Assembly (NCBI GenBank): GCA_030640025.1
Contig: DAOWKC010000002.1
Span: forward strand, 506,995-570,994
Length of the DNA stretch: 64,000 nucleotides
From: Candidatus Woesearchaeota archaeon
GTDB taxonomy: Archaea; Nanobdellota; Nanobdellia; Woesearchaeales; JAGLXL01
Reading direction: 5' to 3'
Of the stretch, positions 5,530 to 56,123 are shown one piece after another (within the stretch, counting starts at the first letter, position 1; the number at the start of each line of letters is the position of its first letter). The notes under the pieces were generated by a model. The model searched no databases. It was not told the origin of the DNA and worked only from the letters and a program-made list of their open reading frames with translations. The position numbers and the translations under genes were made by a program.

Positions 5530-5577
5530 AAATCCAGCGAAAATAAAGATTTTCTGGGTTTTACTTTAAAAAATCCA
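5530..5577. repeat. X-hairpin-X'-hairpin-X element (X=AAATCCA)
   Basis: AAATCCA 5530-36, GAAAAT-AAAG-ATTTTC, TGGGTTT 5555-61, TTA-CTT-TAA, AAATCCA 5571-77. Confidence 0.55.
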
Positions 5578-5619
5578 AACTTTTATAAATAGAAAAACAA
5601 TCTTAAAGTGGGTATTAGA

Positions 5620-5699
5620 ATGAAAAAGAGGTAGCGGGTAAACCAGTTTACCCTGACCATCTTTTTCATAATTTAGGGAATCAGAATATGAAAAAGAGG
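5620..5699. repeat. X-hairpin-X'-spacer-X element duplicating the start of the downstream gene
   Basis: ATGAAAAAGAGG at 5620 and 5688; inverted copy CCATCTTTTTCAT 5657-69; hairpin GGGTAAAC-CA-GTTTACCC between. Confidence 0.7.
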
Positions 5700-7583
5700 G
5701 GACAGATTACAATATTCATAATCCTAGGTATACTTCTATTAATTGCCATTGCGTTGATAGTTATTTTTAGAAGGGAAATAACTGTTTTTCAACCAGAAAG
5801 AGTATTGCCGCCAGAATTAGCACCAGTAGCAAGTTATGGTGACAATTGTTTAGAGGCAGTGGTGATGGATGGTTTACATTTAATGGGGGCGCAAGGCGGT
5901 TATATTTATTTTCCGTCAGAGATAGAAAATAATCCTTTGTCTTATATTGATACAGGCCTTAAAATTCCTTATTGGCAGTATATTACAGACAATAGAATTC
6001 CTTCTTTAGGTTTAATGGAGGCTCATCTAAGCAGATATATTGAAGAACATATCAATGATTGTTTAGAGGGTTTTGAGCCTTTTCAGGATCAATATGATTT
6101 TATCCAAAAGGGAGCTGTAGAAGCAGAGACAACAATTGGGGATGTTAATGTGGTTGTTGAGATGGAATATCCTTTTGAGGTGGTCAATAAAGAAGGAACA
6201 AAAATTACTGATTTGGATTCTTTTAAAGTGATTCTGCCAGTTAAACTGAAAAGAGTTTATGAAGTGGCCAAACAAATCATGGAGACAGAGTCTGAAGACA
6301 ATAAACTAGAAAAAGTTACTATTGATTTGATTTCACTTGACCCTGAAATTCCAATTTCTGGTTTTGAATTAAGCTGCTCCCAGAAGATCTGGCAGGTAAA
6401 TGAAGTTGAAAGCAAATTAAAAACTTTGCTGAGGACAAACCTGCCTTTAATCAGAGTTGATAAAACTAGTTATGCAGCTGTACCTGATGACCAGCCTTAT
6501 ATCCTGAATCATTTTGTCTGGGATGTGACTGAGTCAACTTATCGGGATATCAAAGCATCAATTCAATTTAATGAAATCAATCCTTTGATGATGGCGGTAA
6601 CACCTCGAGACGGCAATTTGCTGAAAAGCGGAATGCAGCAAGGGCAGGATATAGCTTCTTTTGTCTGCATGCAGATGTGGAAATTTACTTATGATGTGCA
6701 ATATACTGTGGTGGTTGCTGTTGAAGACGTGGAAAATAATTTTGCACTTAATTTTGGTTTTAATGTTCAAGTCAAGGACAACAGGCCGAGCAGGGATATC
6801 TTGGGTGCGGCCACCCAAACCTTTGTCCAGTATGATGCAACTGCTGAGGCTTATTGTGCAGAAGAGAATAAGTATGGAAATTATAATATGAAAATCTATA
6901 CTTATGACAATGTTTCTGACCCAACTTTGGGAGAAAGCAGTTTCCCAATCCATAATGTTGACATTACTTTTACTTGTTTGAAATTTAAATGTGAGATGGG
7001 CAAGACAAAGTTTGAACAAGGCGGTGCTATTTCAGTTTTGGAAGCACGATTTCCATATTGTGTCAATGGTATTTTACGAGCCAATAAAGAAGGTTATCAA
7101 GAGACCTTTGAATTTGTAACAACTGTGCCGGGCAAAGAAGTGAGTTTGTATTTGAAACCACTGCATATAATTGATAAATATTCTGTTGTCAAACACGAAC
7201 TAGTTAATGGTGTATTGTCAGCTGCCCAGCCTTTGGCAGAAGGGGAAAGCGCCTTTATTACTATCAAATATGTTGAAAATGAAACGATTAAGCATTCAAC
7301 CAGTGGAGCATATCCAGCAATATTAGACGGTGAATTGCAGCCAATTGAATTATTGGCAGAAGCTGATTTTACTTATGACCTTGAAGTTTATTTAATGGAT
7401 GACGAAGATTTGATTGGCGGTTTTAACAGTGCCTGGACACCGCTTTGGACTGATTTAGGCGGCTCAGATGAGATTGTTTTCCATGTGGTTGAGGTGGGAG
7501 CGCCAGTGTCAGAGCAACAAACTTTGAGTTTTTTAAATAATATCAAAACCTATTCAAGTCAAATAATTCCTGAATTAAAATGA
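5688..7583 (+). CDS. Large protein with archaeal class III (type IV pilin-like) signal peptide
   Basis: MKKRG/QITIFIILGILLL prepilin-peptidase motif followed by hydrophobic helix. Confidence 0.75.
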   Translation: MKKRGQITIFIILGILLLIAIALIVIFRREITVFQPERVLPPELAPVASYGDNCLEAVVMDGLHLMGAQGGYIYFPSEIENNPLSYIDTGLKIPYWQYITDNRIPSLGLMEAHLSRYIEEHINDCLEGFEPFQDQYDFIQKGAVEAETTIGDVNVVVEMEYPFEVVNKEGTKITDLDSFKVILPVKLKRVYEVAKQIMETESEDNKLEKVTIDLISLDPEIPISGFELSCSQKIWQVNEVESKLKTLLRTNLPLIRVDKTSYAAVPDDQPYILNHFVWDVTESTYRDIKASIQFNEINPLMMAVTPRDGNLLKSGMQQGQDIASFVCMQMWKFTYDVQYTVVVAVEDVENNFALNFGFNVQVKDNRPSRDILGAATQTFVQYDATAEAYCAEENKYGNYNMKIYTYDNVSDPTLGESSFPIHNVDITFTCLKFKCEMGKTKFEQGGAISVLEARFPYCVNGILRANKEGYQETFEFVTTVPGKEVSLYLKPLHIIDKYSVVKHELVNGVLSAAQPLAEGESAFITIKYVENETIKHSTSGAYPAILDGELQPIELLAEADFTYDLEVYLMDDEDLIGGFNSAWTPLWTDLGGSDEIVFHVVEVGAPVSEQQTLSFLNNIKTYSSQIIPELK

Positions 7584-12704: not shown

Positions 12705-12707
12705 AAA

Positions 12708-13241: not shown

Positions 13242-13729
13242 GTGATGATTTTGAAAGATTTTGAGAGCTGTAAAAAAGAGGGAATTGTGATTGAAGATGA
13301 AAGAGATATAGACAGAGCTAAGAATCTTTTGGAAAAAGCAATGCTAAGGAAGGAATTTTGGTCAAAGTCGTATAATAAAAAATATGATTTTTTAATTGTT
13401 GAAGGGTATTATGAAGTTATTAAAGAATTATTAACTGCTTTAGTTAATTTGAAGGGGTTTAAATCCTCTAATCATGAATGTTTGGTTGCCTTTTTCAATG
13501 AAACATTTGAAAAATATGCTTATGAAGCAGAAATAATAGATACTCTAAGAAGAGTAAGGAATGCGATTGATTATCGGGGAGTTTACAGCGATGAAAATTA
13601 TTTGAAAAACAATAAATTAGAATTTGAACACACGAAAAAATGAAAGACATTTTTTGTGTCCTGAAAATCTTTGATTTTCATGATATCATTGACTTGTTAA
13701 TAAAATTAGTTAAAAAAGAATTAAAATGA
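13242..13729 (+). pseudogene. HEPN-domain protein, C-terminus cut off by a 53-nt hairpin insertion (ORF now stops at 13643)
   Basis: HEPN-like YYE.., NHEC, RRVRNAIDY; removing 13632-13684 restores ...LEFEH-IIDLLIKLVKKELK* ending in ATGA overlap with 13726. Confidence 0.75.
13628..13686. mobile_element. Double-hairpin insertion inside HEPN gene
   Basis: ACAC-AAAAAATG..CATTTTTT-GTGTC-TGAAAATC TTT GATTTTCA-GATAT. Confidence 0.7.
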
Positions 13730-15153
13730 AAAGAAAATTAATGATTGGACTGTGGATGATTTTATTATTTTCATTAGCTGTTATGGCCCAGTCTGAGTGC
13801 AGTGAATGCGTGGCGATTGACAATGCCTGGGATAAGGTTAAAGTTAAGTTAAAATTACCACCCGGCCAGAATTTTTATGATCCGATATTAGGAAAATGGG
13901 TTCCAGCAAGCAGATATTTGACTGGTGTAATCCAAGGAGAGTTTGTGCTTCGAGAAGCTGGCGTGAAAAGGTTTTTGGATGGGATTTTACCTGGAGCTCA
14001 AACACTTCAACAAAAAGGTTGTATACTTGGAGGAATTGAACAAAGAACTTGGGAGAGACGAAGTGTTGGTGGACTTGAGTGGTCTCCAACTCCGGCTTGG
14101 ACATTTTTTGATTCGGAAGGTTTGGCAGCTGTGATTGTTGATAGAATAACCAATAAAGGTCAAAAATTAATTTTACCTGGTGAAAAAAAGGATTATGATA
14201 ATAACGATGTTTATCGAGAAGGCTGTATCTATTCAGTTTTACAGGCTATGGAGCCGGGCATGAAGGTTATTGTGAACGGCGTTACTTTTGAAAAAAGCCA
14301 AGAAGTAAAAGACGGGAATGTGACATCAATATTTATTTCTCTTAATCAAGCCAGGAATTTAAATGAAATGACAACTGATATTATAAACTTGGGCAGGGAT
14401 GTAGAAATCAATCCTGAGTATATTGAACCTGAAAAACTTGAGTTAATAATCTTTTCTCCAAGAGATGGAGAGGTAACTGGTTTGGCAGTTGAATTTAGAG
14501 CAGATGCAAGAGGCGGTAAGCCGCCATACGAATTTAAATGGGTGGGTCCTGCTATTGGTTCAGGAGTTATTGGTCCAGGAGTTGTGACAAATATTGAAGG
14601 CAGGTGGTCCCAAACTTTTGGCACTCAACCAAAGTTTAATGAATCAGATGGAGTGCAGTTTACTTTAACTGTAACAGATAGTAATATGGACACAGCATCA
14701 GATTCATTGACTTTTTCTCCAAGGACAAGGAATTCTTATGAGCTAATTTTGTATGATGGATCTTCTTTACCTGTGACAATGTGGGATAAGAAATTTAAGT
14801 TTATTGATGGCAAGTGGAAATGGACTTACACAGACTCAGATGATTTTAAGCCATTGATCAATAAGAGTGTGACTGGAAGGATTAATCTAGCTGATTTAAG
14901 GGAGGTTCTGTCTGATAAACAGAGAATGATTGCTGGTATAAGGTGGTGGGATGGGATTTTTAATTTAATGGAACAATTGGAGACTAGTTATGTTGATGGA
15001 ATTGAAGTTTTAGTTTTGGCTGCAAATGACAACAAGAATAATCCAGGTGTTTCTGACCCAGAATTGCTTCTCAAAAGACCTGATAGAGACTATACTTATG
15101 AATGCTGTGAGATAGATTTAGCGACAATAGAGCGGGCAGCAAGAAAAGATTGA
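13726..15153 (+). CDS. Secreted protein with PKD/Ig-like domain
   Basis: Signal peptide; GGKPPYEFKW...TLTVTDS PKD-like motif. Confidence 0.7.
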   Translation: MKRKLMIGLWMILLFSLAVMAQSECSECVAIDNAWDKVKVKLKLPPGQNFYDPILGKWVPASRYLTGVIQGEFVLREAGVKRFLDGILPGAQTLQQKGCILGGIEQRTWERRSVGGLEWSPTPAWTFFDSEGLAAVIVDRITNKGQKLILPGEKKDYDNNDVYREGCIYSVLQAMEPGMKVIVNGVTFEKSQEVKDGNVTSIFISLNQARNLNEMTTDIINLGRDVEINPEYIEPEKLELIIFSPRDGEVTGLAVEFRADARGGKPPYEFKWVGPAIGSGVIGPGVVTNIEGRWSQTFGTQPKFNESDGVQFTLTVTDSNMDTASDSLTFSPRTRNSYELILYDGSSLPVTMWDKKFKFIDGKWKWTYTDSDDFKPLINKSVTGRINLADLREVLSDKQRMIAGIRWWDGIFNLMEQLETSYVDGIEVLVLAANDNKNNPGVSDPELLLKRPDRDYTYECCEIDLATIERAARKD

Positions 15154-17347: not shown

Positions 17348-18127
17348 ATGTTTAATGCTTTTAAAAAGAGTTGGTTGGTGGTCAAGAAAAACAAGTGGTT
17401 ATTTGGCTTGATTTTCCTAATCCAGATTGTTTTTATTATTGCTTTTTTTATGGTGCAGTTGAAATATCAAGTGGCGATGGTGGAGAACCTGAACAATATT
17501 TTACAGCCTTTGGAAGAAGCTAATTATAACGAAGAGGAATTAAAGCAAGGGGTGCCTTTTTTAGAAGATTTGACCGGTGTGCTTAACAGTTGGGAGGATT
17601 TGAAAAAGAATCTGATGTATTTGATGGTGTTTTCTTTTTTAGTGGTGGCTGTTTTTAGCGGCTGGGGCTGGAGTTTGACTCACTATATGGTCAAGAAAAA
17701 TAATATTTTGAAATTATGGGGCAAATTTGTCTTGTTAGCGGCTGGGTTTTTTATTCCTTTTTTGATTGTTATTTCTTTACTGCTGGGAACAATGTTTTTC
17801 CAAGACAATCCAATAGCTGCTGCACAGGCGGCGATTGTGTTAGGAGCTGTTTTTAGTTATTTTGCTTTGGCAAGTTTTGGATTAATGGATTTGAAATGGA
17901 AGAAATTATTTAAGAAGGTTTTTTGGGAAATCGGCATTAAAAAATTTTATTGGGTCTTGCTGGTTTATTTGATTATTGGAGTGGTTTTGTTTTTGTTGGG
18001 TTATTTGATGTATTATGCTGTTAATTTTTGGCCAATGGGTTTAGTGGTTTTGTTTATTATCTTGTTTGTTTTGGCAATGGTTTTTGGGAGAATATTGTTG
18101 ATAAATTCTTTAAGAGAAATCGCCTAG
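17348..18127 (+). CDS. Polytopic membrane protein
   Basis: About 6 TM segments. Confidence 0.7.
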   Translation: MFNAFKKSWLVVKKNKWLFGLIFLIQIVFIIAFFMVQLKYQVAMVENLNNILQPLEEANYNEEELKQGVPFLEDLTGVLNSWEDLKKNLMYLMVFSFLVVAVFSGWGWSLTHYMVKKNNILKLWGKFVLLAAGFFIPFLIVISLLLGTMFFQDNPIAAAQAAIVLGAVFSYFALASFGLMDLKWKKLFKKVFWEIGIKKFYWVLLVYLIIGVVLFLLGYLMYYAVNFWPMGLVVLFIILFVLAMVFGRILLINSLREIA

Positions 18128-19333
18128 TCTTTTTTGCAACTGTGCTTTGTCTAATTGGGGTTCGCCGTATTCGCCGTCATAGCCTGGTTTGATTTTAATT
18201 TGACCTAGTCTGTTTTTGATGATATTTTCGGCTAGTTTGGGATGGATGATGGTTTTTAATTTTTCCAGAGGGACATTTAAGAGAATATTGTATTCGTCTT
18301 TGAAGGCTTTGATAAGTTTCCAGTATTCTGTCCAGCAGGTTTTGGTGTTTAAGCCGAAACTGAAAGTGTTGGCGATGAGTTCTGTGAGAGGAAGGAGTCT
18401 TTTGAAAGGAATGGCATTTTGTGGTTTATATCCTTCTGGCCGGTCAGCAAGTTCTTCAATTCTGTTGAGAACACCGATAGTGAGTTCTTTTTTGCATTTA
18501 GGGCAAATCTTGTTGAGTTTGTTTGATTCTTTGGGTTCTAAGCAGACATGGCAGTTGCGGTGGCCGTCGAGATGATATTTTCCGTAGTTAGGATCGACTT
18601 CAATGGTTTCTTTGAAAGTTTTTTCCCGAATGTTTTTGATAATTTGCTCATAACTTAATTCATTTAAATCAAAGACAGTTGCTTCTCTGCCTAATCTCCA
18701 GGGCCAGTAAGAATGAAGGTCTGAGAATGACAAGAGAGCGAATTTGTCCATTTTGCTGTAGCGCCAGTTCATTTCTGGGTCAGATGAGAGACCGGTTTCA
18801 ATGGCGTGGATGTGTTTGACCTGGTCTTGAAAAGCTTGTTCTAAAGTATTGAAGCCGCCTTTGCTGCCTAAGACTCCAAACCAAGGAGTCCAGGCATGAG
18901 CCGGGATGATTTCAATGTCTTTTGAGATTGATTTGAGTTTTTCTGTGAAATCAATGCAGCTGATTCCAAAGATTGGACGGCCATCATAGTCTATTCTGCC
19001 TTTGGATTTGAGGTAATCAGTGATTTGGCTGACAACTTCATAATTTGGTGCGAAGACAAGGAGGTGAATTCTTCGACCTTTGTTGTCTTGAGTGTAGATT
19101 AATGATATTTCTGTCTGCCAAATAAATGGGAAGCCGGTTTTTGTTTTTAATATTCCATTTTGCTCTTCTAAGACTTTTAATTCTTTAATCCAGATAGGAT
19201 GGGTGAAGTCGCCTGTGCCAAGTAAGTGGACGCCTTTTAGTTTAGCCCATTTTTCTAAGTTTTGAAGATCTAAAGTAGGAGAAGTGGCTCTGGAGTATTT
19301 GGAATGGATATGGAGATCTGTTATTAGTTGCAT
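18110..19333 (-). CDS. Endonuclease Q family (PHP domain plus Zn finger)
   Basis: DLHIHSKYSRATS, GTGDFTHP, PAHAWTPW, ETGLSSDP, SDLHS, CxxC...CPKC, PGYDGEYG. Confidence 0.88.
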   Translation of the reverse strand: MQLITDLHIHSKYSRATSPTLDLQNLEKWAKLKGVHLLGTGDFTHPIWIKELKVLEEQNGILKTKTGFPFIWQTEISLIYTQDNKGRRIHLLVFAPNYEVVSQITDYLKSKGRIDYDGRPIFGISCIDFTEKLKSISKDIEIIPAHAWTPWFGVLGSKGGFNTLEQAFQDQVKHIHAIETGLSSDPEMNWRYSKMDKFALLSFSDLHSYWPWRLGREATVFDLNELSYEQIIKNIREKTFKETIEVDPNYGKYHLDGHRNCHVCLEPKESNKLNKICPKCKKELTIGVLNRIEELADRPEGYKPQNAIPFKRLLPLTELIANTFSFGLNTKTCWTEYWKLIKAFKDEYNILLNVPLEKLKTIIHPKLAENIIKNRLGQIKIKPGYDGEYGEPQLDKAQLQKRLGDFS

Positions 19334-19408
19334 TATTTTGTAGTTTGGGTCTGGATTATATTAAATTTACGATAAAGTTTAAAAAAGCAAGTGGTTTTTC
19401 AGTTAGAT

Positions 19409-20980
19409 ATGGAAAAGAGAAAACTGGAATTTTATCATTGGGCTGATAAGGCGGCTGATGATGTCATCAAAGTTAAAGGTGATAAAAAGAAATATGTAAT
19501 GGCAGCTGGGATTACGCCAAGCGGTACAATTCATATGGGGAACTTTAGGGAGATTATTACCCAGGAATTAGTTAAGAGAGCTCTTGAGGCTCGGGGGAAA
19601 CAAGTATGTTTTATTTATTCTTGGGATGATTATGATGTTTTTAGAAAGGTTCCTAAAAATATGCCAAAGCAGGAGATGTTGAAAAAGAATCTTAGAAAAT
19701 CAATTTCAGATATTCCAGATCCTTTTGGCTGCCATGACAGTTATGCCCAGCATAATGAAGCAGAGATTGAAGAAGATGCGCCTAAAGTCGGCATTGAAAC
19801 TGAATTCATGAGACAGAGTCTGGTTTACAGGGCAGGAACTTATGATAAAGAGATTAAGCAGGCTTTGGAGCATACTCAAGAGATTAAAGATGTTTTGAAT
19901 GAATATCGGAAGGAGCCTTTGGAAGATAATTGGCTGCCGATTGCTATGTTTTGTCCTAAATGCGGTAAAGACACAATTAAGTCTTTGAAATGGCTTGGCG
20001 GTTATGAAATTGAATATGAATGTGAATGCGGTGAGCATGAAAAAGTTGATTTCAAAGGCAAAGGATTTGTGAAATTATTATGGCGGATAGACTGGCCAAT
20101 GAGATGGCATTATTATAATGAAGATTTTGAGTCAGCTGGCAAGGATCATTTTGCAGCTGGCGGTTCTGTGGTGACAGCTAGGGGAATACAAAAAGCAGTT
20201 TGGAAAACAGAGCCGCCATTGGGATTTCCTTATGAATGGATTTCAATTAAAGGCGGAAAGCAATTTGCTTCATCAGCTGGTGTAGTGATAACTTTAAAAG
20301 AGATGTTAGAAGTTTATCAGCCTGAAGTTGTTCGTTATTTATTTGCTTCGACCCGGCCAAATGCCGGCTTTTCAATTTCTTTTGATGTTGATGTGATCAA
20401 GATTTATGAGGATTTTGACAAATGTGAGAGAATATATTATGGTTTGGAAAAGGTTTCTGATAAGGAAAAAGAAAAGCAGAAAAGGATTTATGAATTGAGT
20501 TCTGTGGCTGGCGTTTCAGAAAAAGTTCCTTTGCAGTGGTCTTTTAGGCATTTGACAACTATTTTACAGATTCATCAGTTGGATATTGAGAGGACAATTG
20601 GTTTTTATGAGAAGGAAATCAAGGATAAGTTGGATAAGGAAAGATTGCAGGCCCGGACTGTTTGCGTCAAGAATTGGCTGGAAAAACATGCGCCTGATGA
20701 TTTTAAGTTTACTGTGCAGGATAAGGTTCAGGTTAAGTTAGGGAAAAAAGAGAAGGAAGCAATGAAAGAATTAGCAAAGAAATTATCTGAGAGAGACTGG
20801 ACAGATGTGGAGCTGCATAATGAAATTTATATTATTACCAAGAACTTTGATATTGAGCCTAAAGATTTCTTTAAAGCTGCTTATCAAGTTTTGATTAATA
20901 AGGAAAGAGGGCCGAGATTGGCTTCTTTTATTTTACAGATTGGAAAGGACAAAGTTATTGAGTTATTGGAGGGGATTTAA
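19409..20980 (+). CDS. lysS: Lysine--tRNA ligase, class I
   Basis: HWAD, GITPSGTIHMGN (HIGH-like), WRIDWPMRW, GKDH, GPRLA. Confidence 0.95.
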   Translation: MEKRKLEFYHWADKAADDVIKVKGDKKKYVMAAGITPSGTIHMGNFREIITQELVKRALEARGKQVCFIYSWDDYDVFRKVPKNMPKQEMLKKNLRKSISDIPDPFGCHDSYAQHNEAEIEEDAPKVGIETEFMRQSLVYRAGTYDKEIKQALEHTQEIKDVLNEYRKEPLEDNWLPIAMFCPKCGKDTIKSLKWLGGYEIEYECECGEHEKVDFKGKGFVKLLWRIDWPMRWHYYNEDFESAGKDHFAAGGSVVTARGIQKAVWKTEPPLGFPYEWISIKGGKQFASSAGVVITLKEMLEVYQPEVVRYLFASTRPNAGFSISFDVDVIKIYEDFDKCERIYYGLEKVSDKEKEKQKRIYELSSVAGVSEKVPLQWSFRHLTTILQIHQLDIERTIGFYEKEIKDKLDKERLQARTVCVKNWLEKHAPDDFKFTVQDKVQVKLGKKEKEAMKELAKKLSERDWTDVELHNEIYIITKNFDIEPKDFFKAAYQVLINKERGPRLASFILQIGKDKVIELLEGI

Positions 20981-20981
20981 A

Positions 20982-21722
20982 ATGAAGAAAAATGTTAAGG
21001 TTGCGATTTTTTTATTAATAGTGGTTTTGATTGCATTTTTTTATCTTTTGTATGGTTATTATTCTGAAAAGGAGAAAGTTGATACTCGGACACCTCAGCA
21101 GAAAATTGATGATTGGGTCAAAGCTGGCGGTAGAGTGACAGATGGTGTTTATGATTTAGAGATTGGAAATTTTGTTATAAATGATGACGGGAAAACAGTG
21201 ATTTTATATGATAAAGACGGAAATCCGATTTTTTTTACCCCGATTGATGACCTAGTTGAAGCAATTGAAATTGGTAAGTTAACTTTAATGGTTGAAGGTT
21301 CTTTGCAAGTTCCTGATACTAGTGCGCCACCACCTGCTCCAGCGCCTGTTCCTGTTCCCATTCCTGTGCCAATACCACCAGTTACAGAGGATAATGAGAC
21401 AAATGTAACTGTTCCTTCACCTACTCCTGTACCAACTCCACCAAATGCAACTCCAAGTCCTGGGCCTTATCTACCTGCTTGTTCAAACGGGCAATGGGAT
21501 GGAGATGAAAGTGATTTAGACTGCGGTGGCAGCTGTGCTCCTTGTTTGAGTTCTGGATTGTTTACTGCCTGTTGGGAGAACAGTGATTGTGCTACTGGGA
21601 ATTGCGGTGGAATAATGCCTCTGCCAATTGATTATAAAGGGACAACTTATAGTGATTATAGTCTGATTAGAATCTTGGCTGGAGATACTGGGATTATTCA
21701 GTTTCAGGGAAGATGTCAATAG
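20982..21722 (+). CDS. Membrane-anchored protein with Pro-rich linker and Cys-rich surface module
   Basis: N-terminal TM; PAPAPVP; CSNGQWDGDESDLDCGGSC. Confidence 0.7.
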   Translation: MKKNVKVAIFLLIVVLIAFFYLLYGYYSEKEKVDTRTPQQKIDDWVKAGGRVTDGVYDLEIGNFVINDDGKTVILYDKDGNPIFFTPIDDLVEAIEIGKLTLMVEGSLQVPDTSAPPPAPAPVPVPIPVPIPPVTEDNETNVTVPSPTPVPTPPNATPSPGPYLPACSNGQWDGDESDLDCGGSCAPCLSSGLFTACWENSDCATGNCGGIMPLPIDYKGTTYSDYSLIRILAGDTGIIQFQGRCQ

Positions 21723-21864
21723 AATTAATTTTTTAATTTTTGATTAACCAATAAAAGCAATATTTAGACACGAGAAATTTGCAAACAAAAAACCAACATA
21801 CTTTCATTGAAGAAGGCTTTCTGTGCAGTGTTTACAATTAAAAAATAAAAAAAAATAAAAAGAA

Positions 21865-21996
21865 CTAATTTTTAAAAGGATCATCTCCTGGTCCAACCCA
21901 AAGATAATTTTCTGGTTGTCTTTTATTCACTTTCAACAAGTATAGCCCCATACCTATTGAAGCAAATCCAAAGATTAAAAAGATTTGGGCTAGCAT
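21865..21996 (-). CDS. Small membrane protein (43 aa), not in ORF track
   Basis: GGTGA RBS right after alba stop; MLAQIFLIFGFASIGMGLYLLKVNKRQ... Confidence 0.55.
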   Translation of the reverse strand: MLAQIFLIFGFASIGMGLYLLKVNKRQPENYLWVGPGDDPFKN

Positions 21997-22006
21997 TTGA
22001 ATCACC

Positions 22007-22288
22007 TTACTTTTTTCCTAGTGTTATTTCAATTGAACTCACTCGAACTTCTCGTCCTTCCTTGTTTTCAAAGTCTTCACTGTCAATTTTGATGCCCTTA
22101 ACTTGTACTTGCTCAGCCAAGAATCTCTTGGCAGAAACTTCAGCAACGTCAACAGCTCGAGAGATAAATTTGCCCCTGGCCTTGACAATTACTTCTTCTG
22201 CACCCTTAGTGGTAAACTGCATAACTACGCCGGTAACATAGTTCATGAATGGCTTGCCACCGATAAAAATACTGTTTTCATCTGCCAT
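22007..22288 (-). CDS. albA: DNA/RNA-binding protein Alba
   Basis: IFIGGKPFMNYV, KARGKFISRAVDVAE, VSSIEI. Confidence 0.96.
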   Translation of the reverse strand: MADENSIFIGGKPFMNYVTGVVMQFTTKGAEEVIVKARGKFISRAVDVAEVSAKRFLAEQVQVKGIKIDSEDFENKEGREVRVSSIEITLGKK

Positions 22289-22303
22289 TTACTTCACCCC
22301 CAC

Positions 22304-22498
22304 TTAAACAATATCTGGTTTTTTCTTTAGTCTGGTTACATAACCAGCTATGATGTTTCTTAATTTCTTGCTAGGAACATGAGCGAATTTACTAACTAAT
22401 TCTTTGTTTTTTTCGAAATCTTCGGTGAACTCTTTTTCGTGTTCAGCCATGATTTCTCTTGTTTTACGTTTGATAAGCATGGTTTTAATTCTTCCCAT
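22304..22498 (-). CDS. rps17e: 30S ribosomal protein S17e
   Basis: MGRIKT..IKR, FTEDFEKNK, SKKLRNIIAGYVT. Confidence 0.95.
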   Translation of the reverse strand: MGRIKTMLIKRKTREIMAEHEKEFTEDFEKNKELVSKFAHVPSKKLRNIIAGYVTRLKKKPDIV

Positions 22499-22544
22499 TA
22501 TGTTATCCCCCAGATAGCTTAAAACTTTGTGGCGATTTATAAAG

Positions 22545-22611
22545 ATTGCGAAAATTCTTCGAATTTCTGAAACCCCCAAAATCTTTTAGGCTTTTGGTGG
22601 TTGCGAAAATT
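22545..22611. repeat. Double-hairpin element with 11-bp direct repeat (55-nt period)
   Basis: TTGCGAAAATT at 22546 and 22601; AAATTC-TTC-GAATTT and CCAAAA..TTTTGG hairpins. Confidence 0.55.
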
Positions 22612-23273
22612 TACATAAGTTCCCTTAAAATTTTGGCCATGAGCTTAAAATCCTTGAATTCAGCCAAGTCAGCTGCTTTAAAATTCTTTAATTTCTTTAA
22701 TCTTTGAAGGAAATAGAGGAGCTGTCTTACGGTCAAGCCTCCGGTGTTTTGGTCTAAAACATCGTTGTCAATGGAGATGTATAAGGCATTGAAGTCTTTG
22801 GCAGCAGCCATGATAGCATCGCAGACAGCTTCTTGGCCTTCAAAAGAGATTTCTTTCATAGTGTATGTTTTGATGTTATTATTTTTGATGAAGAAATACT
22901 CATCTTTGCTCCATTCTCGGCAGCCGACAATTATTATATTGTTTTTGGGGATGATATTGGTTAGGAATGGGACTAGATCTTCATTATTTAAAGCGTCTAA
23001 ATGAGCATCGAAGATGATAATACTTGGGTTTTGATGGTTCTGAGAAATCAAAGATTTCTGGAATCCCAAAACCGCTTTGCGGTTTTGATGGGTTTGTGTG
23101 AATTTTTGGAAAGATTCTCTGGTTTTGAGATGGTTGTCATGGATTATGGCGGTGAAGTTTGAGGAGAAATCAAGATTTTGGTCTATATTAATGACTGGGA
23201 AAGTGCCTGATTCATTTAATTGCGGTTTTTGGAGTTCTTTTTTTAATTCTTCTGGCGGGTTGATAAGGTTCAT
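22611..23273 (-). CDS. Divergent arginase/agmatinase-family protein with 18-aa in-frame insertion
   Basis: IFDAHLD, VGCR, SIDNDVLD, GGLT motifs. Confidence 0.8.
   Translation of the reverse strand: MNLINPPEELKKELQKPQLNESGTFPVINIDQNLDFSSNFTAIIHDNHLKTRESFQKFTQTHQNRKAVLGFQKSLISQNHQNPSIIIFDAHLDALNNEDLVPFLTNIIPKNNIIIVGCREWSKDEYFFIKNNNIKTYTMKEISFEGQEAVCDAIMAAAKDFNALYISIDNDVLDQNTGGLTVRQLLYFLQRLKKLKNFKAADLAEFKDFKLMAKILRELM
23027..23091. mobile_element. In-frame 54-nt X-hairpin-X'-hairpin-X insertion
   Basis: GGTTTTGATGG at 23027 and 23081; cap CTGAGAAATCAAAGATTTCTGG; inverted GAATCCCAAAACC; GC-TTT-GC. Confidence 0.8.
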
Positions 23274-23317
23274 ATCTTACATAATTTTTATTAAGGTAAA
23301 TAAATTTTTCTAATAAA

Positions 23318-23605
23318 ATGCCAACTGAATTTGAAAAAAAAGTTTATTCTATCTGCAAAAGAGTTCCTAAGGGCAAAGTGACAACTTACAAAGCAATTGC
23401 CAAGAAATTAAAGTGTAAGGGTTATCAGGCTGTGGGCAATGCTTTGAATAAGAATAGGGATAAGAAGGTGCCGTGCCATCGGGTTGTGAAAAGTAGTGGG
23501 GAGGTCGGTGGTTTTGCACGCGGTACGAAAAAGAAAATTGAAATGTTAAAAAAAGAAGGCGTTGGGATTAAAGATGGGGAAGTTTTGAAGAAATATTTAA
23601 TTTAA
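23318..23605 (+). CDS. MGMT family (O6-alkylguanine alkyltransferase C-terminal domain)
   Basis: VPKGKVTTY, AVGNAL, VPCHRVV. Confidence 0.9.
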   Translation: MPTEFEKKVYSICKRVPKGKVTTYKAIAKKLKCKGYQAVGNALNKNRDKKVPCHRVVKSSGEVGGFARGTKKKIEMLKKEGVGIKDGEVLKKYLI

Positions 23606-24319
23606 TTTACAAGAAGTTACTATTTTTTTCTCCTTATCAAAAACAACATAACCTGGTTTTAAATCCCGCGGCTTGCCAATAGAGCCAACATCAACACCAT
23701 AGAAATATTCTAGATCTAAGACCAGGGGCTGAGCAGGGAATGTTTCTATTTGTTCAAAATTGGTTGGAATGATGTTATTCTTCTTTAATTTAAAAGCTTC
23801 GGTTAAATGATAGTGGCCAAAAAAACCAATATCAACCCCTAAACTTTCTATTCCAACCATAGCTGCGACAATATTGTACCTTTTTGTTGAATAAGTGAGT
23901 AAGGCTGCTCTTTCTTCATGAGGTAATAATTCTTTTTCCCCAATGGGACAGCCATGAACATAAACAGTACCATCTTCAACAATTTGTATTGGCAGATTCT
24001 TTAAAAATTCTTTTTGTTCTACACTTAACAATCTTTTTGCTTGGTCTACAGTACTTTGAGCCCAGGGATTGAACTCCCAATATAAGTCTGGATATTTTCC
24101 AGAAACAACAGCACCGTGATTGCCCAGCACATTTCTCATGATGCCATCTTGTTCCAAGTCCATGGCCATCTTAACACATTTTTCTGGATGATCTCCATAA
24201 CCAATTATATCACCCAAACTGATAATTTCTGTTATACCCTGTTTTTTAATCCCAGCTAAAGCTTTTAAAAAATTATCCAAATGTGCATGGACATCCGATA
24301 AGATTGCTACAAGTGTCAT
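23597..24319 (-). CDS. Calcineurin-like metallophosphoesterase
   Basis: SDVH, LGDIIGYG, GNH, VHG, GHYH, GSIGKPRD. Confidence 0.88.
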   Translation of the reverse strand: MTLVAILSDVHAHLDNFLKALAGIKKQGITEIISLGDIIGYGDHPEKCVKMAMDLEQDGIMRNVLGNHGAVVSGKYPDLYWEFNPWAQSTVDQAKRLLSVEQKEFLKNLPIQIVEDGTVYVHGCPIGEKELLPHEERAALLTYSTKRYNIVAAMVGIESLGVDIGFFGHYHLTEAFKLKKNNIIPTNFEQIETFPAQPLVLDLEYFYGVDVGSIGKPRDLKPGYVVFDKEKKIVTSCKLN

Positions 24320-24342
24320 TTCTGCAAAAAAAGAAAAATAAA

Positions 24343-25263
24343 TTATTTTTTCTTGGTTTTTTCGATTTGCTTTTCAAGCTTTAATTTCTTGATAAGCTCT
24401 TTGTAACGGTTTCTGATAGTTACTTCGGTGACACCAGCAACATCAGCTACTTCTCTTTGAGTTCTTTTTTCGCCATGGATCAAAGAACTGACATATAAAG
24501 CAGCAGCAGCAATACCAGTTGGACCTCGTCCAGAAGTTAATTCAGCTTCTCGAGCATCCTCAAGAATTTCAACAGCTTTGCTCTGTGTTTCTGCTGACAA
24601 GCTTAAAGCAGAAGCAAATCTTGGGATATAATCTGCTGGATTGCTTGGCAGGATATTAATGCTTAATTCTCTGGTGACAAATCGATAGGTTCGGCCAATT
24701 TCTTTCTTTTCGATTCCACTAGCTTCGCTCATTTCATCCAGTGTTCTTGGGACTTCATGCCGTCTACAAGCTGCATATAAAGCGCCGGCAACAACTGATT
24801 CCATTGAACGTCCTCTAACTAGCCCTCTTTGGACAGCTAAAGTGTAGATTCGAGCTGCTTCTTCTTCAACTGATTTTGGCAGTTTTAAGAAAGAACTGAC
24901 TCTTTTAAGCTCAGCTAAGGCAACTTTAAGGTTTCTTTCAATGGCTGTACTGATTCTATACTGCCATTTTCTTAATCTGAAGAACTTGTTTTTTTCCTTT
25001 TTAGTGCCTAATTTGTATAAGTCTGATTTTTGGCCAACTTCTGTGCCTAAACCTTGATCAAATTGAGTATAAGTTGATGGAGCACCGGCTCTTCGCCTTT
25101 TATCGGCGTCATCAGAATCAAATTCTCGCCATTCCTGCTCAAAATCAACCATCTTTTCTTCAATAACTAGACCACAATCTTTACAAATCATTTCTCCTCG
25201 TTCCTTATTTCGGAAAAGGTTGATTCCACCACATTCAGGGCATTGCTTGATAAATTTTCTCAT
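24343..25263 (-). CDS. tfb: Transcription initiation factor IIB
   Basis: CPECG Zn ribbon, EWREF, two cyclin folds, VTEVTIRNRYKEL. Confidence 0.97.
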   Translation of the reverse strand: MRKFIKQCPECGGINLFRNKERGEMICKDCGLVIEEKMVDFEQEWREFDSDDADKRRRAGAPSTYTQFDQGLGTEVGQKSDLYKLGTKKEKNKFFRLRKWQYRISTAIERNLKVALAELKRVSSFLKLPKSVEEEAARIYTLAVQRGLVRGRSMESVVAGALYAACRRHEVPRTLDEMSEASGIEKKEIGRTYRFVTRELSINILPSNPADYIPRFASALSLSAETQSKAVEILEDAREAELTSGRGPTGIAAAALYVSSLIHGEKRTQREVADVAGVTEVTIRNRYKELIKKLKLEKQIEKTKKK

Positions 25264-25278
25264 TTTAGTTCACCTTAA

Positions 25279-25689: not shown

Positions 25690-25765
25690 TTTTATCACTA
25701 CACAACCATTAAACACCAATCACTATAAGAACCCCTCTTTCACAGTTAAGTTTAAATATCATTGT

Positions 25766-26814: not shown

Positions 26815-26835
26815 TGTTTTGTTACTACTATTCAG

Positions 26836-27442: not shown

Positions 27443-27485
27443 TTTTGGTAAAATTTTATATATTGGCAGTTAAATTTTATTTTTT

Positions 27486-32302: not shown

Positions 32303-32335
32303 AAGCTGAACTTCGGTTTGGCTTTTTTGTTTTTT
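32303..32335 (+). terminator. cUUCGg-capped hairpin followed by U-tract
   Basis: AAGCTGAAC-TTCG-GTTTGGCTT (9 bp, 2 G-U) then T-rich run. Confidence 0.5.
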
Positions 32336-32393
32336 ACACTGAAAAAACTTGGTTTTTTTGGTGTCCTAAAAATCCGTTTGGATTTTTATGATA
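32336..32393. repeat. Double-hairpin element similar to the HEPN insertion
   Basis: ACAC-GAAAAAAC TTG GTTTTTT-GTGTC-TAAAAATCC GTTT GGATTTTTA-GATA. Confidence 0.65.
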
Positions 32394-32412
32394 ATTGTGG
32401 AGGCGAAAAAAA

Positions 32413-33837: not shown

Positions 33838-33896
33838 ACATTTTTTTTTATTTTTTCCATAATGTTTATAAACTTCAGAGAATGAATTGAGTTAAA

Positions 33897-34112: not shown

Positions 34113-34155
34113 CTTATTTTTTTATTTTTTTTCTTAGGATTCTAGAGATAACACA

Positions 34156-36090: not shown

Positions 36091-36167
36091 ATTAATCACC
36101 TTTTTTATATAATGAATTAATTAAATCATCAATATATATAAACTTTATTGATAAATTGATAATAAAT

Positions 36168-36425
36168 TTATTCTTCACTGACCTTGAAGATTTCGTCATT
36201 GCCCCGGCATTTTTCAGGGACTTTGATGCCGATCTCATCGCCTGATTTGGCTGTTTCAACATCTTCCCGATTGATTTGCATGCTGTCAACCTGAGTTGTG
36301 AAGTCTGTGGTGGCTCCTTTGATGTGGATTTTGTCTCCAACTTTTAAGTCGCCTTCTAGGACGATGGCAGCAACACTAACTTTGTCAAAAAAATGAGAAA
36401 CTTTTCCGATTTTTTCTTCTGGCAT
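36168..36425 (-). CDS. Translation-elongation-factor-like beta-barrel protein
   Basis: IGKVSHFF, LKVGDKIHIKG.TTDF, SMQI, GDEIGIKV. Confidence 0.8.
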   Translation of the reverse strand: MPEEKIGKVSHFFDKVSVAAIVLEGDLKVGDKIHIKGATTDFTTQVDSMQINREDVETAKSGDEIGIKVPEKCRGNDEIFKVSEE

Positions 36426-36483
36426 GTTTAAAAACCCCCCGGAGTTTTTGACATCCCAGAAATCTTTGATTTCTCAGGATGTT
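36424..36483. mobile_element. 55-nt X-hairpin-X'-hairpin-X insertion between RBS and start codon
   Basis: ATGTT 36424 / GACAT 36450 / ATGTT 36479; 22-bp cap identical (inverted) to 23040-23061. Confidence 0.8.
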
Positions 36484-36532
36484 AATTCACCCCGTTAAAA
36501 GTTAAAAGAAGTTAAAGTATAAATAATTTACT

Positions 36533-37189
36533 TTATCTATTAAGAATTGTTTGAGCATACTCTTGTTTTTTTTGACTGCCGTTGTATCTTTGTAAAGCTG
36601 TTGGCCAGGGTCTGAAACCGATTGATTGGCCTTGTTTGTTGAATCTTTGGGCCTTGTGGATTAACCATCTGATGCCATATTTGATGCTTAGTTCTGGAGT
36701 CATTTTTGAACCGGTGTAATCCCATCTGTTATTTTTTCTTGGGGTTTCTCTAATTCCCTGTAAATCTGGATAACCTGGAATGCCTGATTCACTGCCGTCT
36801 CTGAGGATTTTTAAGGCAAAATCTCCTTGATTAGCAATCTGCATAGGGTCGTGACTGAAGGCGTCCTGATGGCTGCCTGATTCCTGGCAGATCATTGATT
36901 TGATTAAATTAACATCTAAAGTTTGATAACCCTGAAATCTTGAGAATTTTTGATTCCATTCGTTGGTGTATTTATTGATTAAAGAATCATATTGGTCAAC
37001 ATGTTCGAAACCTTGGAAGCTCTTGAGTTTTTGTTCTAAAGGTGACTCTTGTTTTTGTTTTTGAACAATCTTGGGCTGAGTTTTTTGGGGTTGAGTAATA
37101 AGATTATAAACAGCTGGAATCACATGGTAACCATAAATGCCCAACATGCTTAAAGTAGCTATAGTAAGGACTAGATTGTGTTTTTTCAT
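36533..37189 (-). CDS. Lysozyme-fold/SLT-like lytic transglycosylase, N-terminally anchored
   Basis: LIKSMICQESG (catalytic E), DPMQI, SIKYGIRWL, ALQRYNG. Confidence 0.75.
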   Translation of the reverse strand: MKKHNLVLTIATLSMLGIYGYHVIPAVYNLITQPQKTQPKIVQKQKQESPLEQKLKSFQGFEHVDQYDSLINKYTNEWNQKFSRFQGYQTLDVNLIKSMICQESGSHQDAFSHDPMQIANQGDFALKILRDGSESGIPGYPDLQGIRETPRKNNRWDYTGSKMTPELSIKYGIRWLIHKAQRFNKQGQSIGFRPWPTALQRYNGSQKKQEYAQTILNR

Positions 37190-37302
37190 TTTTAATTATA
37201 ACCTGATTTACTCATTTATAAACTTTTCTATAATTTTATTACTCTTGAGTGATAAATGGGATAAACATAAAATTTAAATAAAAAATTAGATTGTTTAAGG
37301 TT

Positions 37303-37656
37303 ATGGCTAAAAAAAAGAGGAAGAAGAGTTCTAAAAAGGTTAGGAGAAAGAGCAAAAAACAAAAGAAAGAGCCTAAGATCCTGGCTTATGCAAGCATTGT
37401 TTTGGGTGTAGTTGGTTCTATAGTGGTTGTAGCTGACGCTTTGGCCTTGATAATGACTCAGTATATCAATGGTCCTTTGTTGATATTTACTTATTTAGCA
37501 AGCATGGTAGTTTTTACAATTGGTTTATTAGGAGTTGCCCTGGCAACTGCTGATTTAATGGTTTTTCCTAAAAGTGAATTGGCCAGAAAAGCTATGTATT
37601 TTAATCTGGTGGTGATGTCAATAACTTTTGTGCTGATTTTATTTGGGATTTTCTAG
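37303..37656 (+). CDS. Membrane protein with basic N-terminus
   Basis: K-rich N-terminus, 3 TM. Confidence 0.65.
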   Translation: MAKKKRKKSSKKVRRKSKKQKKEPKILAYASIVLGVVGSIVVVADALALIMTQYINGPLLIFTYLASMVVFTIGLLGVALATADLMVFPKSELARKAMYFNLVVMSITFVLILFGIF

Positions 37657-37658
37657 AG

Positions 37659-37703
37659 AACGAGAAAATTTAGAATTTTCTGGTGTTTAAAAATTTTTCA
37701 AAC
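37659..37703. repeat. Degenerate double-hairpin element between convergent genes
   Basis: AGAAAATT-TAG-AATTTTCT then GTTT-AAAAA/TTTTT-CAAAC. Confidence 0.45.
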
Positions 37704-38148
37704 TTTTCAAACAATTTAATGTTTTGAAGGCTATTAACGCAATATTTTGGACGTCTTTAGGAATATGATCTTGGTTGAGTTCTTCTTTAGAGAGCCATTT
37801 GAAATCTTTGATTTCATCTTTGTTGATTTTGATATTTTTGGGATTGTTTGTTTTGCAAAGATAGAAAAGGCAATAGTGGTCGTGGTCGCCAGCTTCATGG
37901 ATGTTGACATAAAAAGGAACAGCCATGTGTTTTCTGATGTTTCCTCCATGATCAACTGGCTTTTGATTGAGAACTTCAATATCTAAATTGACTTCTTCTT
38001 TATATTCCCTGATTAAGGCTTGGTCTGGTGTTTCGTTTTGGTCGAGATGTCCACCAGGGGCAAGCCATAAATCTAATTTTTTGTGATGGATTAAAAGTAG
38101 TTTATGGTCATGGATTAAAAAGCCATTGACAGTAAGGTCTGTTTTCAT
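37687..38148 (-). CDS. NUDIX hydrolase
   Basis: PGGHLDQNE..ALIREYKEEVNL. Confidence 0.9.
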   Translation of the reverse strand: MKTDLTVNGFLIHDHKLLLIHHKKLDLWLAPGGHLDQNETPDQALIREYKEEVNLDIEVLNQKPVDHGGNIRKHMAVPFYVNIHEAGDHDHYCLFYLCKTNNPKNIKINKDEIKDFKWLSKEELNQDHIPKDVQNIALIAFKTLNCLKSLKNF

Positions 38149-53583: not shown

Positions 53584-54016
53584 AGGTATACCTAGGTCGT
53601 GTTTTGATAGAGAACTTTCTGGGTCAAGAGTATATATGGCGGGAAAGACTAAATATGTTTTCCACACAAAATATGTTCTGTGTGTATGTGTTTACTAATG
53701 TCAACATTGTTGTCAGAAAGTATATATCATTTGAACCCTATAGAATATGTATGGCAGCTTCCAACTTTTTTATCAAAAACCACCAATTAATATGTCGTTG
53801 GTTTGTTAAAGTGAATTACAACAAAAAAGTGGTTTTTGATGCTCAAAATATCACGACTGGTGGTTTTTGGAACACAAAATATCATTCTAGTTTAATCAAC
53901 AAAGGAGTGATATTTTGTTGTTTAAAACAGTATTATCCCAAGGTTGAAGGGGTGGTTCTTGCTTGTTTACGGAGAAATGGGTTTAATTTGACTGATAATA
54001 GTCTGAGTGGGGAGAA

Positions 54017-55542: not shown

Positions 55543-55649
55543 TGCAGAGAATATTTTTGATTATTGGTTTATAAGTTTTGTTGTGTTGGATTATTATTAT
55601 TCTTTTATTTCAATAATCTTTATAAGTTAGTTTTTCCTTGAATATTTTT

Positions 55650-56039
55650 ATGGCTTTGGACGATGGAATTGTTTGGCCGGAATATGACGGATTCTACAAA
55701 GTAATCCAGGTTAGAGTGAAGGGGAGGGAATATCTGAGGATTGCTGCTGACAGTGCTATGTTTCATTGCGAGCTGCTGAAATCTTTTTTAGACAAGATAG
55801 GAGTAGATTACAGGACAAGAGAATTCGGGGGCGGAAAAAGAAAAGGTCCTGAAGTTCATGGTGATGGATACGAGCTGTTTGGGGCAGGTTTAGTAAAGAG
55901 TTTAGCCGAAGAAAAAGAAGCTACATTTGGTGAAAGAAGCAGTGATTATGACTGTGGAATTGATATCAGTCATATAAAGAAGATTAAGGACTCAGATACA
56001 AGCAGGAAGATTAGGGTTGCTTTTGGAAGATTAAGATAA
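55650..56039 (+). CDS. Janus/Ocnus (PHPT1 phosphohistidine phosphatase)-like protein
   Basis: DGFYKVIQVRV..EYLR..FHCELL..GAG..SSDY follows the PHPT1 motif order as recalled. Confidence 0.55.
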   Translation: MALDDGIVWPEYDGFYKVIQVRVKGREYLRIAADSAMFHCELLKSFLDKIGVDYRTREFGGGKRKGPEVHGDGYELFGAGLVKSLAEEKEATFGERSSDYDCGIDISHIKKIKDSDTSRKIRVAFGRLR

Positions 56040-56071
56040 ACTTTAAATACTCGAAATTTATTCTTTAGGTT

Positions 56072-56123
56072 GAGGTATCAAAAATCAAAGATTTTTGGAA
56101 CCTCCTCGTATATACTCGGAGGT
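56072..56123. mobile_element. X-hairpin-X'-hairpin-X insertion with X = RBS GAGGT
   Basis: GAGGT 56072, CAAAAATC-AAA-GATTTTTG, ACCTC 56100, GAGGT 56119. Confidence 0.75.

Follow-up and report, generated by a model that had tools for sequence, protein, structure and literature searches.

Mobile double hairpins with a partly target-built structure form a widespread repeat family in Woesearchaeota-type archaea

We describe here a family of short hairpin elements dispersed through the genome of a Candidatus Woesearchaeota archaeon. The stretch of DNA analyzed, referred to as the window, comprises 64,000 nucleotides (G000:C4:506995-570994, where G000 is our label for the source genome, which has 1.30 Mb in four contigs and a G+C content of 35.5%), and positions given without a contig are those of the window. 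The genome encodes ribosomal protein S17e, a mark of an archaeon, and the names carried by homologous proteins point to the Woesearchaeota-type DPANN archaea. An earlier note, made from the letters of this DNA, had pointed to nine sites at which a short local sequence (X) recurs in direct, inverted (X') and again direct orientation around two hairpins, one of them with a recurrent cap, and we inspected all nine in sequence. The elements belong to a real, widespread mobile hairpin family with an unusual, partly target-built structure. Its module, which surfaced when all occurrences of GTGTCC in the genome were listed, consists of two hairpins over 58 positions, with the consensus CAC-N-GAAAAA..tip..TTTTT-N-GTG for the first and TCC-C-AGAAAT..tip..ATTTCT-CA-GGA for the second; 24 aligned copies give nAACAC-n-GAAAAATC[tip]GATTTTTG-GTGTCC-CAGAAATC[tip]GATTTCTCAGGAT. 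In both hairpins the A-rich base is fixed, and both have a clamp of 3-5 bp (CAC/GTG in the first, TCC/GGA in the second) and a small conserved asymmetry. A cap hairpin, C-[A/T]-GAAAT..ATTTC-[T/A]-G, forms the conserved core, within such a clamp and with an asymmetric base that sets C against CA. The tips vary among copies while the pairing stays perfect, GC-NNN-GC and TC-TTT-GA being the commonest. The usual unit, CAC-H1-GTG adjoining TCC-H2-GGA (H1 and H2 being the two hairpins), is about 51-70 nt long, and both single units and chained arrays are also found, the arrays consisting of up to five abutting hairpins with 3-7 nt linkers. These arrays have no spacers or cassettes, and integron attC sites and CRISPR were set aside for that reason; C/D-box sRNAs and archaeal bulge-helix-bulge introns were dropped on sequence inspection, since the boxes are missing and the direct repeats misfit a bulge-helix-bulge.

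Copies were scored with a covariance model (R1) built from 23 seed copies, four of them from the window, which was scanned with filters off; the four strong matches in the window agree with the model partly by construction, because window copies sit in its seed. With this model the nine elements of the earlier note resolve into four strong and about four weaker copies of the family, and one site, at 5620, that lies outside it. Two of the strong copies are T-variant modules on the plus strand. The first, at 13629..13686 (63 bits, E 5.3e-13; nhmmer E 3e-11; an R1 seed copy), lies between open reading frames (ORFs) 13242-13643 and 13726-15153 and has the structure ACAC-G-AAAAAATG..CATTTTTT-GTGT for H1, a CC linker, TGAAAATC ttt GATTTTCA for H2, and then TGATA; the second, at 32335..32394 (53.5 bits), is about 20 nt upstream of a start at 32414. 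A further plus-strand module, at 36423..36481 (62.8 bits), abuts the start codon (36425, minus strand) of ORF 36168-36425 on its upstream side, with the cap CCAGAAATCTTTGATTTCTCAG at 36456-36477. The fourth strong copy, at 23027..23091 on the minus strand (R1 match 23036-23094(-), 50.8 bits), is a 54-nt in-frame insertion of 18 codons in an arginase-family ORF (22611-23273), and is composed of the direct repeat GGTTTTGATGG at 23027-23037 and 23081-23091, the cap at 23040-23061, an inverted copy at 23062-23073 and a mini-hairpin, GCTTTGC, at 23074-23080. The earlier note had reported that the 22 bp of this cap are identical to the reverse complement of 36456-36477, and direct inspection of the sequence agrees.

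The weaker copies are more varied. One at 37657..37714 (minus strand; 24.9 bits, E 6.6e-4), between ORFs 37291-37656 and 37687-38148, has the cap CGAGAAAATT tag AATTTTCTGG and an A/T palindrome. At 56072..56123 (minus strand; R1 match 56073-56124, 23.7 bits, E 1.3e-3) a single cap, CAAAAATC aaa GATTTTTG, is held between the clamps GAGGT (56072-56076) and ACCTCC (56100-56105), and is followed by a loop and by a Shine-Dalgarno-like GGAGGT (56118-56123) 7 nt before the ATG at 56131. A degenerate two-hairpin copy at 22546..22603 (plus strand; 18.5 bits, E 0.022; nhmmer E 0.15), a weak match, lies between the arginase-like gene and the S17e gene, and a single cap-like hairpin, CCAGCGAAAAT aaa GATTTTCTGGG, at 5531..5591 (minus strand; 14.5 bits, E 0.21) is a doubtful member. 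The site at 5620..5699 (plus strand), around the start of ORF 5688-7583, was read from the sequence and has no R1 match; it is a genuine X/X'/X triple with a different hairpin, in which X, ATGAAAAAGAGG, occurs at 5620-5631 and 5688-5699 (12 nt at a period of 68), the hairpin GCGGGTAAAC cag TTTACCCTGAC at 5634-5657 and the 10-nt inverted copy X', TCTTTTTCAT, at 5660-5669, followed by a spacer. The duplication continues imperfectly upstream (GGGTATTAGA vs GGGAATCAGAAT). A weak covariance-model match is also present at 53838-53922 (-) (19.8 bits, E 0.011), and a palindrome at 37801-37815, within a NUDIX ORF, matches the cap core with no flanking structure and was taken as chance. In the T-variant copies (13664-13690, 32367-32395 and others), one subfamily's second hairpin ends in GATTTTTATGATA, of which the ATGAT(A/T)AT part is retained in a congeneric relative, G001, at the orthologous spot before the gene at 32414; this end may double as a TATA-like promoter element.

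Both the cap and the hairpins are in excess of controls. The pattern RAAATYNNNRATTTY occurs six times in the window against 1.56 expected, a number reached in 0 of 100 shuffles, and over the whole genome RAAATCTTTGATTTY occurs 21 times and its reversed control 0 times. The genome has 468 perfect hairpins whose stems are at least 8 bp long, as against 204 in one shuffle, and 239 of the 468 fall within the intergenic part, which is about 8.5% of the genome when its boundaries are set by crude ORF calls. Exact 8-mer X..X'..X triples form 37 clusters genome-wide, against 7, 16 and 3 in three Markov shuffles, and part of these clusters fall within hairpin arrays; the triple at C2:212790 was rejected as an element, being the 16S rRNA gene's 3' end. 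Two-hairpin modules number 44 in G000 (nhmmer, E<0.02), with 36 outside ORF calls and thus mainly between genes. Of 41 genomes from the archaeal order to which G000 belongs (DPANN, Woesearchaeota-type), 32 have R1 matches and nine have none, and the counts, which include both strands, are 90 in G000, 84 in G009, 37 in G005 and 34 in G028. Copies in other families of the order have the same clamps, cap and consensus, and the best full-length matches in the order reach E 6e-14.

The copies are insertions, acquired lineage by lineage. The 18 extra residues of the arginase-family protein are missing from all eight of its closest homologues (55-79% identity), the closest of which reads QT-HQNPS where G000 has QTHQN[RKAVLGFQKSLISQNHQN]PS, and their deletion gives a gap-free alignment to more distant homologues. 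The earlier note had predicted empty sites that hold one X, and this is what all eight closest homologues have at the arginase-like site. At the nucleotide level, every empty-site result comes from G001, an unpublished genome that is 69% complete and was obtained as 78 contigs. We probed 67 G000 loci, 30 of which have both flanks on one G001 contig; in our reading of the alignments, G001 lacks the element at 17 of these and shares it at one, and at the other 12 the spacers have diverged too far for a decision. In the reverse comparison, none of the four mappable G001 copies (those whose two flanks are both found in G000) is present in G000. Absent likewise is a 43-nt insertion that G001 has at the ribosome-binding site in its counterpart of the 32335-32394 locus, where the orthologous spacer is too diverged to score presence or absence of the module itself. 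No G001 orthologues were found for the window sites 5530, 5620, 13628, 22545, 36424, 37659 and 56072, and an empty site for the copy at 56072 was looked for without success. The insertions within genes are all in frame and open, with lengths of 54 nt in the arginase-like gene, 51 nt at C4:271119 and 54 nt at G001:C69; a further one, in an IscS-like gene, is in frame with a length of 36 or 39 nt by two measures that differ.

Some observations on the recipient proteins and loci are recorded here in their own right. The arginase-family protein and its eight closest homologues make up a clade of short proteins, of about 200 aa. In place of the GGDHS motif they have HDNHL or a similar sequence, and they lack a conserved stretch that is PSSAPGTGY in relatives; from these sequence features the clade member may be non-catalytic or re-purposed. 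At G001:C10:880-1000 one insertion is nested in another, a full module occupying the loop of a second cap-type hairpin (CAGCGGAAAT ... ATTTCCTGG), and G000 has a 6-nt spacer there. The C-terminal Lys/Glu-rich tails of two proteins (G000:C4:81311-82063 and C2:7693-8652) include hairpin units, amounting to 63 to about 250 nt, that are missing in G001.

The young insertions are of two kinds. In one, whole consensus units are present with little or no duplication, as at C4:271119 (51 nt, exactly TCC-H-GGA-CAC-H-GTG, within a gene between AAAA and TTTT), G001:C69 (54 nt, within a gene) and G001:C63 (a single unit of 26 nt). In the other, a single cap is accompanied by target-derived parts, with period-matched direct repeats of 8-14 nt that enclose an inverted copy of 7-11 nt; these are found at C2:194736 (54 nt, at the start of the rpl15e gene), C1:90046, the arginase-like gene (11 nt, period 54), window site 5620 (12 nt), C1:57046 and C4:315467 (14 nt), and the same pattern of direct and inverted duplicates was seen on inspection of G001:C53. 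Single-X empty sites were observed for five of the target-derived cases. Their common layout is a-[uX]-cap-X'-[uX]-b, in which the target is duplicated in tandem and the junction contains the cap together with an inverted copy. The inverted copies of adjacent sequence at the junctions are 5-11 nt long, and at C2:3108, C4:308510 and G001:C63 the host flank now serves as an arm of a perfect hairpin newly formed next to the cap. Over 13 cases the period-matched direct repeats measure 3, 5, 5, 5, 5, 6, 8, 8, 8, 9, 11, 12 and 14 nt, and the duplication at C3:89727 is about 60 nt. Insertion with a target-made X and an inverted copy, as the earlier note had it, is therefore borne out for several young copies, by the arginase-like gene, by five sites polymorphic between G000 and G001, and by the period-matched repeats. 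Its identification of X as host sequence is correct for 23027, where 8/8 closest homologues lack the insert, but not for 13628 and 32336, where the ACAC/GTGT taken for X are the element's own conserved clamps; in the main family the pattern ACAC...GTGT(CC)...(GG)ACAC arises because units with fixed clamps (CAC-H-GTG and TCC-H-GGA) adjoin. Among 27 main-family modules, the longest word shared by the upstream and downstream flanks is distributed as in permuted pairs, and the idea of a flanking duplication at every copy was dropped for this reason.

Template switching had been dismissed in the earlier note, and yet its signatures are all present. Arm changes are concerted, both members being altered in 16 of 19 model pairs; the modules at C4:66260 and C4:136325, identical at 56 of 59 positions, are alike save for a 3-nt loop that is TTT in one and AAA in the other, a pure loop flip; and host flanks serve as hairpin arms. 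The arginase-like copy has one sibling, at C4:608427-608489, with which it has an unusual linker and ends in common, and both arms of hairpin 1 differ between the two in concert. As described in the available portion of PMC8794818, template switching creates new stems with perfect pairing, compensatory changes that span several bases, and inverted loops, and the portion of PMC11724301 at hand describes fold-back priming at breaks, which gives inverted copies of adjacent DNA of 2-150 bp, as well as the capture of hairpin-forming single-stranded DNA at breaks.

On balance, and by a modest measure, we favor a reading in which the elements are a non-coding mobile hairpin family of Woesearchaeota-type (DPANN) archaea, akin to repetitive extragenic palindromic (REP) elements and Rickettsia palindromic elements (RPE), and in which their integration and upkeep draw on fold-back, template-switch DNA synthesis. 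A new copy would be put in place by DNA synthesis and not by a fixed-stagger cut. The folded cap would prime fold-back copying of 2-14 nt of the neighboring host strand, giving X', and synthesis would then return upstream to the original template and re-copy X, at times with more besides, such that the target is duplicated and host sequence becomes the stem of the second hairpin. Later intrastrand template switching would keep the arms complementary as the tips change, and could invert loops and lengthen stems into the flanking DNA. Double hairpins of this origin would be copied onward as whole modules, and copies may pass between lineages along with pieces of neighboring genes. The closed form that the earlier note had in mind, a target duplex with hairpin caps at its two ends that is copied around, is a further possibility. 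A stronger version, which we put forward as a tentative possibility, is that mobility is transposase-free: a self-priming hairpin of about 20 nt would be joined to or copied onto a broken or stalled 3' end, fold-back would build a second hairpin from the target, and the resulting double hairpin would be the next mobile unit, traveling between archaeal lineages with gene fragments and leaving relic gene ends.

Several points weigh against this reading. The mechanism is inferred solely from end products, none of its steps having been observed. The nucleotide-level empty sites depend on one incomplete relative, whose intergenic DNA is often too diverged for alignment, and the sole sequencing run found probably represents the source sample and is available as contigs only, which cannot reveal polymorphism within the population. 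Whole modules insert without convincing duplication (AAAAA only at C4:271119, none at G001:C69, 5 nt at C4:133523), and the 5-6 nt repeats in the IscS-like gene, an AAA ATPase gene and G001:C44 are individually within chance in A/T-rich DNA. The main-family modules have no flanking repeat above the permuted control, and either there are two insertion modes or the triples form after insertion. Spacers of 11-18 nt between X' and the second X are unexplained at several sites, and the orientation of modules to GC skew is without clear bias (~25 vs 16). Finally, conservation of the cap across the families of the order argues for a sequence-specific factor, of which none was found, and pure host repair would not obviously preserve the cap.

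This last point also speaks for the strongest rival, a classical non-autonomous transposon of REP/REPIN-, PATE- or MITE-like type (MITE, miniature inverted-repeat transposable element), in which a dedicated cap-recognizing enzyme, perhaps encoded on a virus or plasmid, moves the element and X/X'/X represents later replication errors at the palindrome. We regard this as rather unlikely, if a serious contender. Besides the conserved cap and its asymmetric base (C vs CA), it would accommodate the patchy distribution (0 to 90 matches per genome), the clean insertion of whole modules without duplication, as with REP and IS200/IS605 elements, and the many copies at contig ends in fragmented assemblies. 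G000 also has a frameshifted Y1 (IS200-like) transposase gene, its only one, split at C4:207303-207639 into frames of 64 aa and 100 aa with a stop between. The distribution of candidate enzymes speaks against such a transposon: Y1_Tnp (PF01797) is present in 11 of the 41 genomes and is unrelated to module counts, such that G028 (34 matches, 99% complete) and G024 (27 matches, single contig) have no Y1 and G023 has two Y1 genes and 2 weak matches, and TnpB-like proteins and reverse transcriptases, each in 5 of 41 genomes, were not found in G000 and do not follow module counts either. Profiling of the kind that the earlier note suggested, of cap abundance against HUH/TnpA-REP and reverse transcriptase genes among others, shows no tracking by Y1, TnpB or reverse transcriptase, the only families tested, across the 41 genomes. 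In addition, the consensus has no GTAG or CGTC tag, and the duplication is of variable length, 0 to 14 nt with an extreme of about 60 nt.

It is improbable, in our view, that the hairpins are retained mainly for a host function, whether as switches at ribosome-binding sites and start codons, as signals for transcript ends or stability, or as protein-binding sites, with X/X'/X a selected alternative pairing. By our reading, at least eight fold-back cases are at translation starts with X over the start codon or the Shine-Dalgarno sequence (window sites 5620 and 56072, C2:194736, C1:90046, C1:57046, C2:3108, G001:C44 and G001:C53); at C2:3108 the loop of the new hairpin provides AGGAGG 10 nt before the re-created ATG, and the middle X' is able to pair with either X. 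This bias toward start sites can be explained by survivorship, because insertion there is tolerated only if the start region is duplicated. Copies also occur within coding regions, the same genes are without the device in the congeneric genome, and there is no preferred orientation to genes. The last is clear from the 44 modules of G000 (++ 12, -- 12, -+ 8, +- 4, and 8 within ORF calls), and this even distribution argues against a strand-specific RNA function. A structured or cis-regulatory RNA was rejected on the absence of strand-specific placement (++ 12 vs -- 12) and on an Rfam scan of the window, in which no family reaches its gathering threshold; the paired arm changes are not decisive for RNA, because DNA template switching would give them too. 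A replication-strand bias was likewise rejected, since 10/10 modules on C3 are on the plus strand but C4 is mixed (12 vs 9). We also note that GC skew in G000 is very strong and of one sign per contig (about +0.1 to +0.3 on C2-C4 and negative on C1), and is largely independent of local gene orientation.

That no mobile element is involved, with hairpins made locally by template switching and caps alike through convergence of A/T-rich palindromes, is very improbable. Template switching alone can yield perfect stems and insertions, as far as the available text of PMC8794818 goes, and A/T tracts are everywhere in a genome with 35.5% G+C; however, convergence does not account for the recurrence across 32 of 41 genomes of one 58-position consensus whose clamps and linker are fixed, for matches with E down to 6e-14, for 22 identical bp at two window sites and 56/59 identity between C4:66260 and C4:136325, or for the lack of a cap in the empty sites. 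An artefact of assembly or amplification, such as fold-back chimeras, has a negligible probability even though palindromes are prone to them and the sole run found may be the source of the assembly, in that the elements reappear unchanged, at about 15x and with no alternative joints, in contigs that a second assembler made from that run, the family is in 32 separately deposited genomes, and the within-gene insertions keep the reading frame. Those contigs, from Logan, reproduce window positions 18001-38000 with 0 differences in long pieces and no joint at the elements; they come from the same sample and are therefore not independent support for the assembly, and two further sequencing runs of the same study have next to none of this DNA.

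The family as we favor it, mobile hairpins that spread by fold-back synthesis, can be set beside several known systems. [quoted passage not shown] Like REP, BIME and REPIN sequences, the woesearchaeal elements are short imperfect palindromes (20-40 nt per hairpin in REP) in many copies, mostly intergenic with some within genes, which occur as singles, inverted pairs and arrays and have subfamilies set apart by paired stem changes; unlike them, young woesearchaeal copies bear a direct and an inverted target duplicate, which that part of PMC3733652 does not describe for REP. The woesearchaeal consensus (23-24 copies) is moreover without a GTAG/CGTC tag and A/T-rich instead of G+C-rich, its tips are hypervariable within one genome, and G000 has no intact REP-associated tyrosine transposase, nor does the family co-occur with one. 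The departure from MITEs is in the target duplication, which is not of fixed length (3-14 nt, 13 cases), a comparison that did not extend to insertion sequences whose ends might match. The simple MITE and REP definitions that were tested do not fit, there being no fixed duplication, no GTAG/CGTC tag and no matching Y1 transposase, and this bears out the earlier note's judgment that the element is not a MITE.

RPE, which were reportedly described by Ogata et al. in 2002 and by Claverie and Ogata in 2003, are bacterial and roughly 100-150 bp long. The woesearchaeal elements resemble them as palindromic selfish repeats in frame within protein genes of a small-genome host, presumably translated as extra loops, and differ, by description and not by sequence comparison, in being archaeal, in having units of 26-70 nt and in that the hairpin is partly target-built. 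Double-hairpin or repetitive hairpin-forming elements exist in fungal and sponge mitochondria. The GC clusters of yeast mitochondria are, in the portion of PMC4478555 available, G+C-rich with fixed 2-3 nt flanking repeats (AG or ACT), and are exchanged between species by recombination in the flanks; like the woesearchaeal elements they are tiny non-coding hairpin or double-hairpin mobile DNAs with rapid substitution, units merged and shuffled into arrays, and a mobilizing enzyme yet to be identified. In contrast to these organellar repeats, the woesearchaeal duplication is 0-14 nt or more and is accompanied by an inverted copy. Template-switch and fold-back insertions, as the parts of PMC8794818 and PMC11724301 at hand present them, have in common with our elements the inverted adjacent copies (2-150 bp in published cases), the perfect new stems, compensatory changes and loop inversions, and the capture of hairpin-forming single-stranded DNA at breaks; they differ as mutational processes without a conserved foreign hairpin, and in those parts they are described in bacteria and eukaryotes and not in archaea. 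A literature search of open-access scope found no account of such repeats in DPANN archaea.

The exchange of GC clusters between species (PMC4478555, in the part available) is paralleled here at an NFACT-like gene. The first 20 codons of this gene occur twice at C3:89727-89947, and a module separates the two copies. The upstream copy is a dead-end relic frame, identical to the corresponding G001 sequence at 20/20 residues and 54/60 bases, whereas the downstream working copy is identical to G001 at 11/20 residues and carries an LDVTKS motif of distant lineages; identity between the G000 and G001 genes is 0.65-0.72 over the first ~45 codons and then mostly 0.8-0.9, with a dip to 0.68 near codons 180-200. 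These comparisons of sequence suggest that the module was imported along with a foreign 5' gene segment. Insertions at gene starts keep the start codon through the duplication and leave mini-ORFs, such as the 4-codon MKKR* that begins in the first X at 5620 and one of 13 codons at rpl15e. At C4:315440-315560 the last 13 codons of a zinc-ribbon (TFS/RPB9-like) gene occur twice, flanking a cap hairpin; both copies encode CEKCKHTW(R/C)EYS*, and 6/8 of their nucleotide differences are at third codon positions.

Two other repeats were encountered. A second repeat, approximately CTTTCGAACGCRAGTGAGAAAGG, is present at G000:C4:448100-448150 and C3:98650-98720, and its 8-mer GCGAACGA occurs 12 times in spacers and 2 times elsewhere, in one gene in frame as LSNASEKG. 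At G000:C4:501907-501998, about 5 kb before the window, a spacer holds several direct and inverted copies of ATGTTACA / TGTAACAT, an arrangement that resembles an operator array more than a hairpin element.

DPANN archaea have tiny genomes and are thought to be poor in mobile elements. The repeat family described here amounts to dozens of insertions per genome in such an archaeon, and it adds peptide loops to enzymes and to the tails of ribosomal proteins, separates ribosome-binding sites from start codons, and creates mini-ORFs; left unmasked, it would lead both gene calling and sequence alignment astray in these genomes. To judge from the NFACT-like locus, the elements may mark or aid the integration of foreign gene fragments. 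The target-derived hairpin arms connect selfish palindromic repeats with fold-back and template-switch repair, and offer a testable route by which such repeats could spread free of a transposase.

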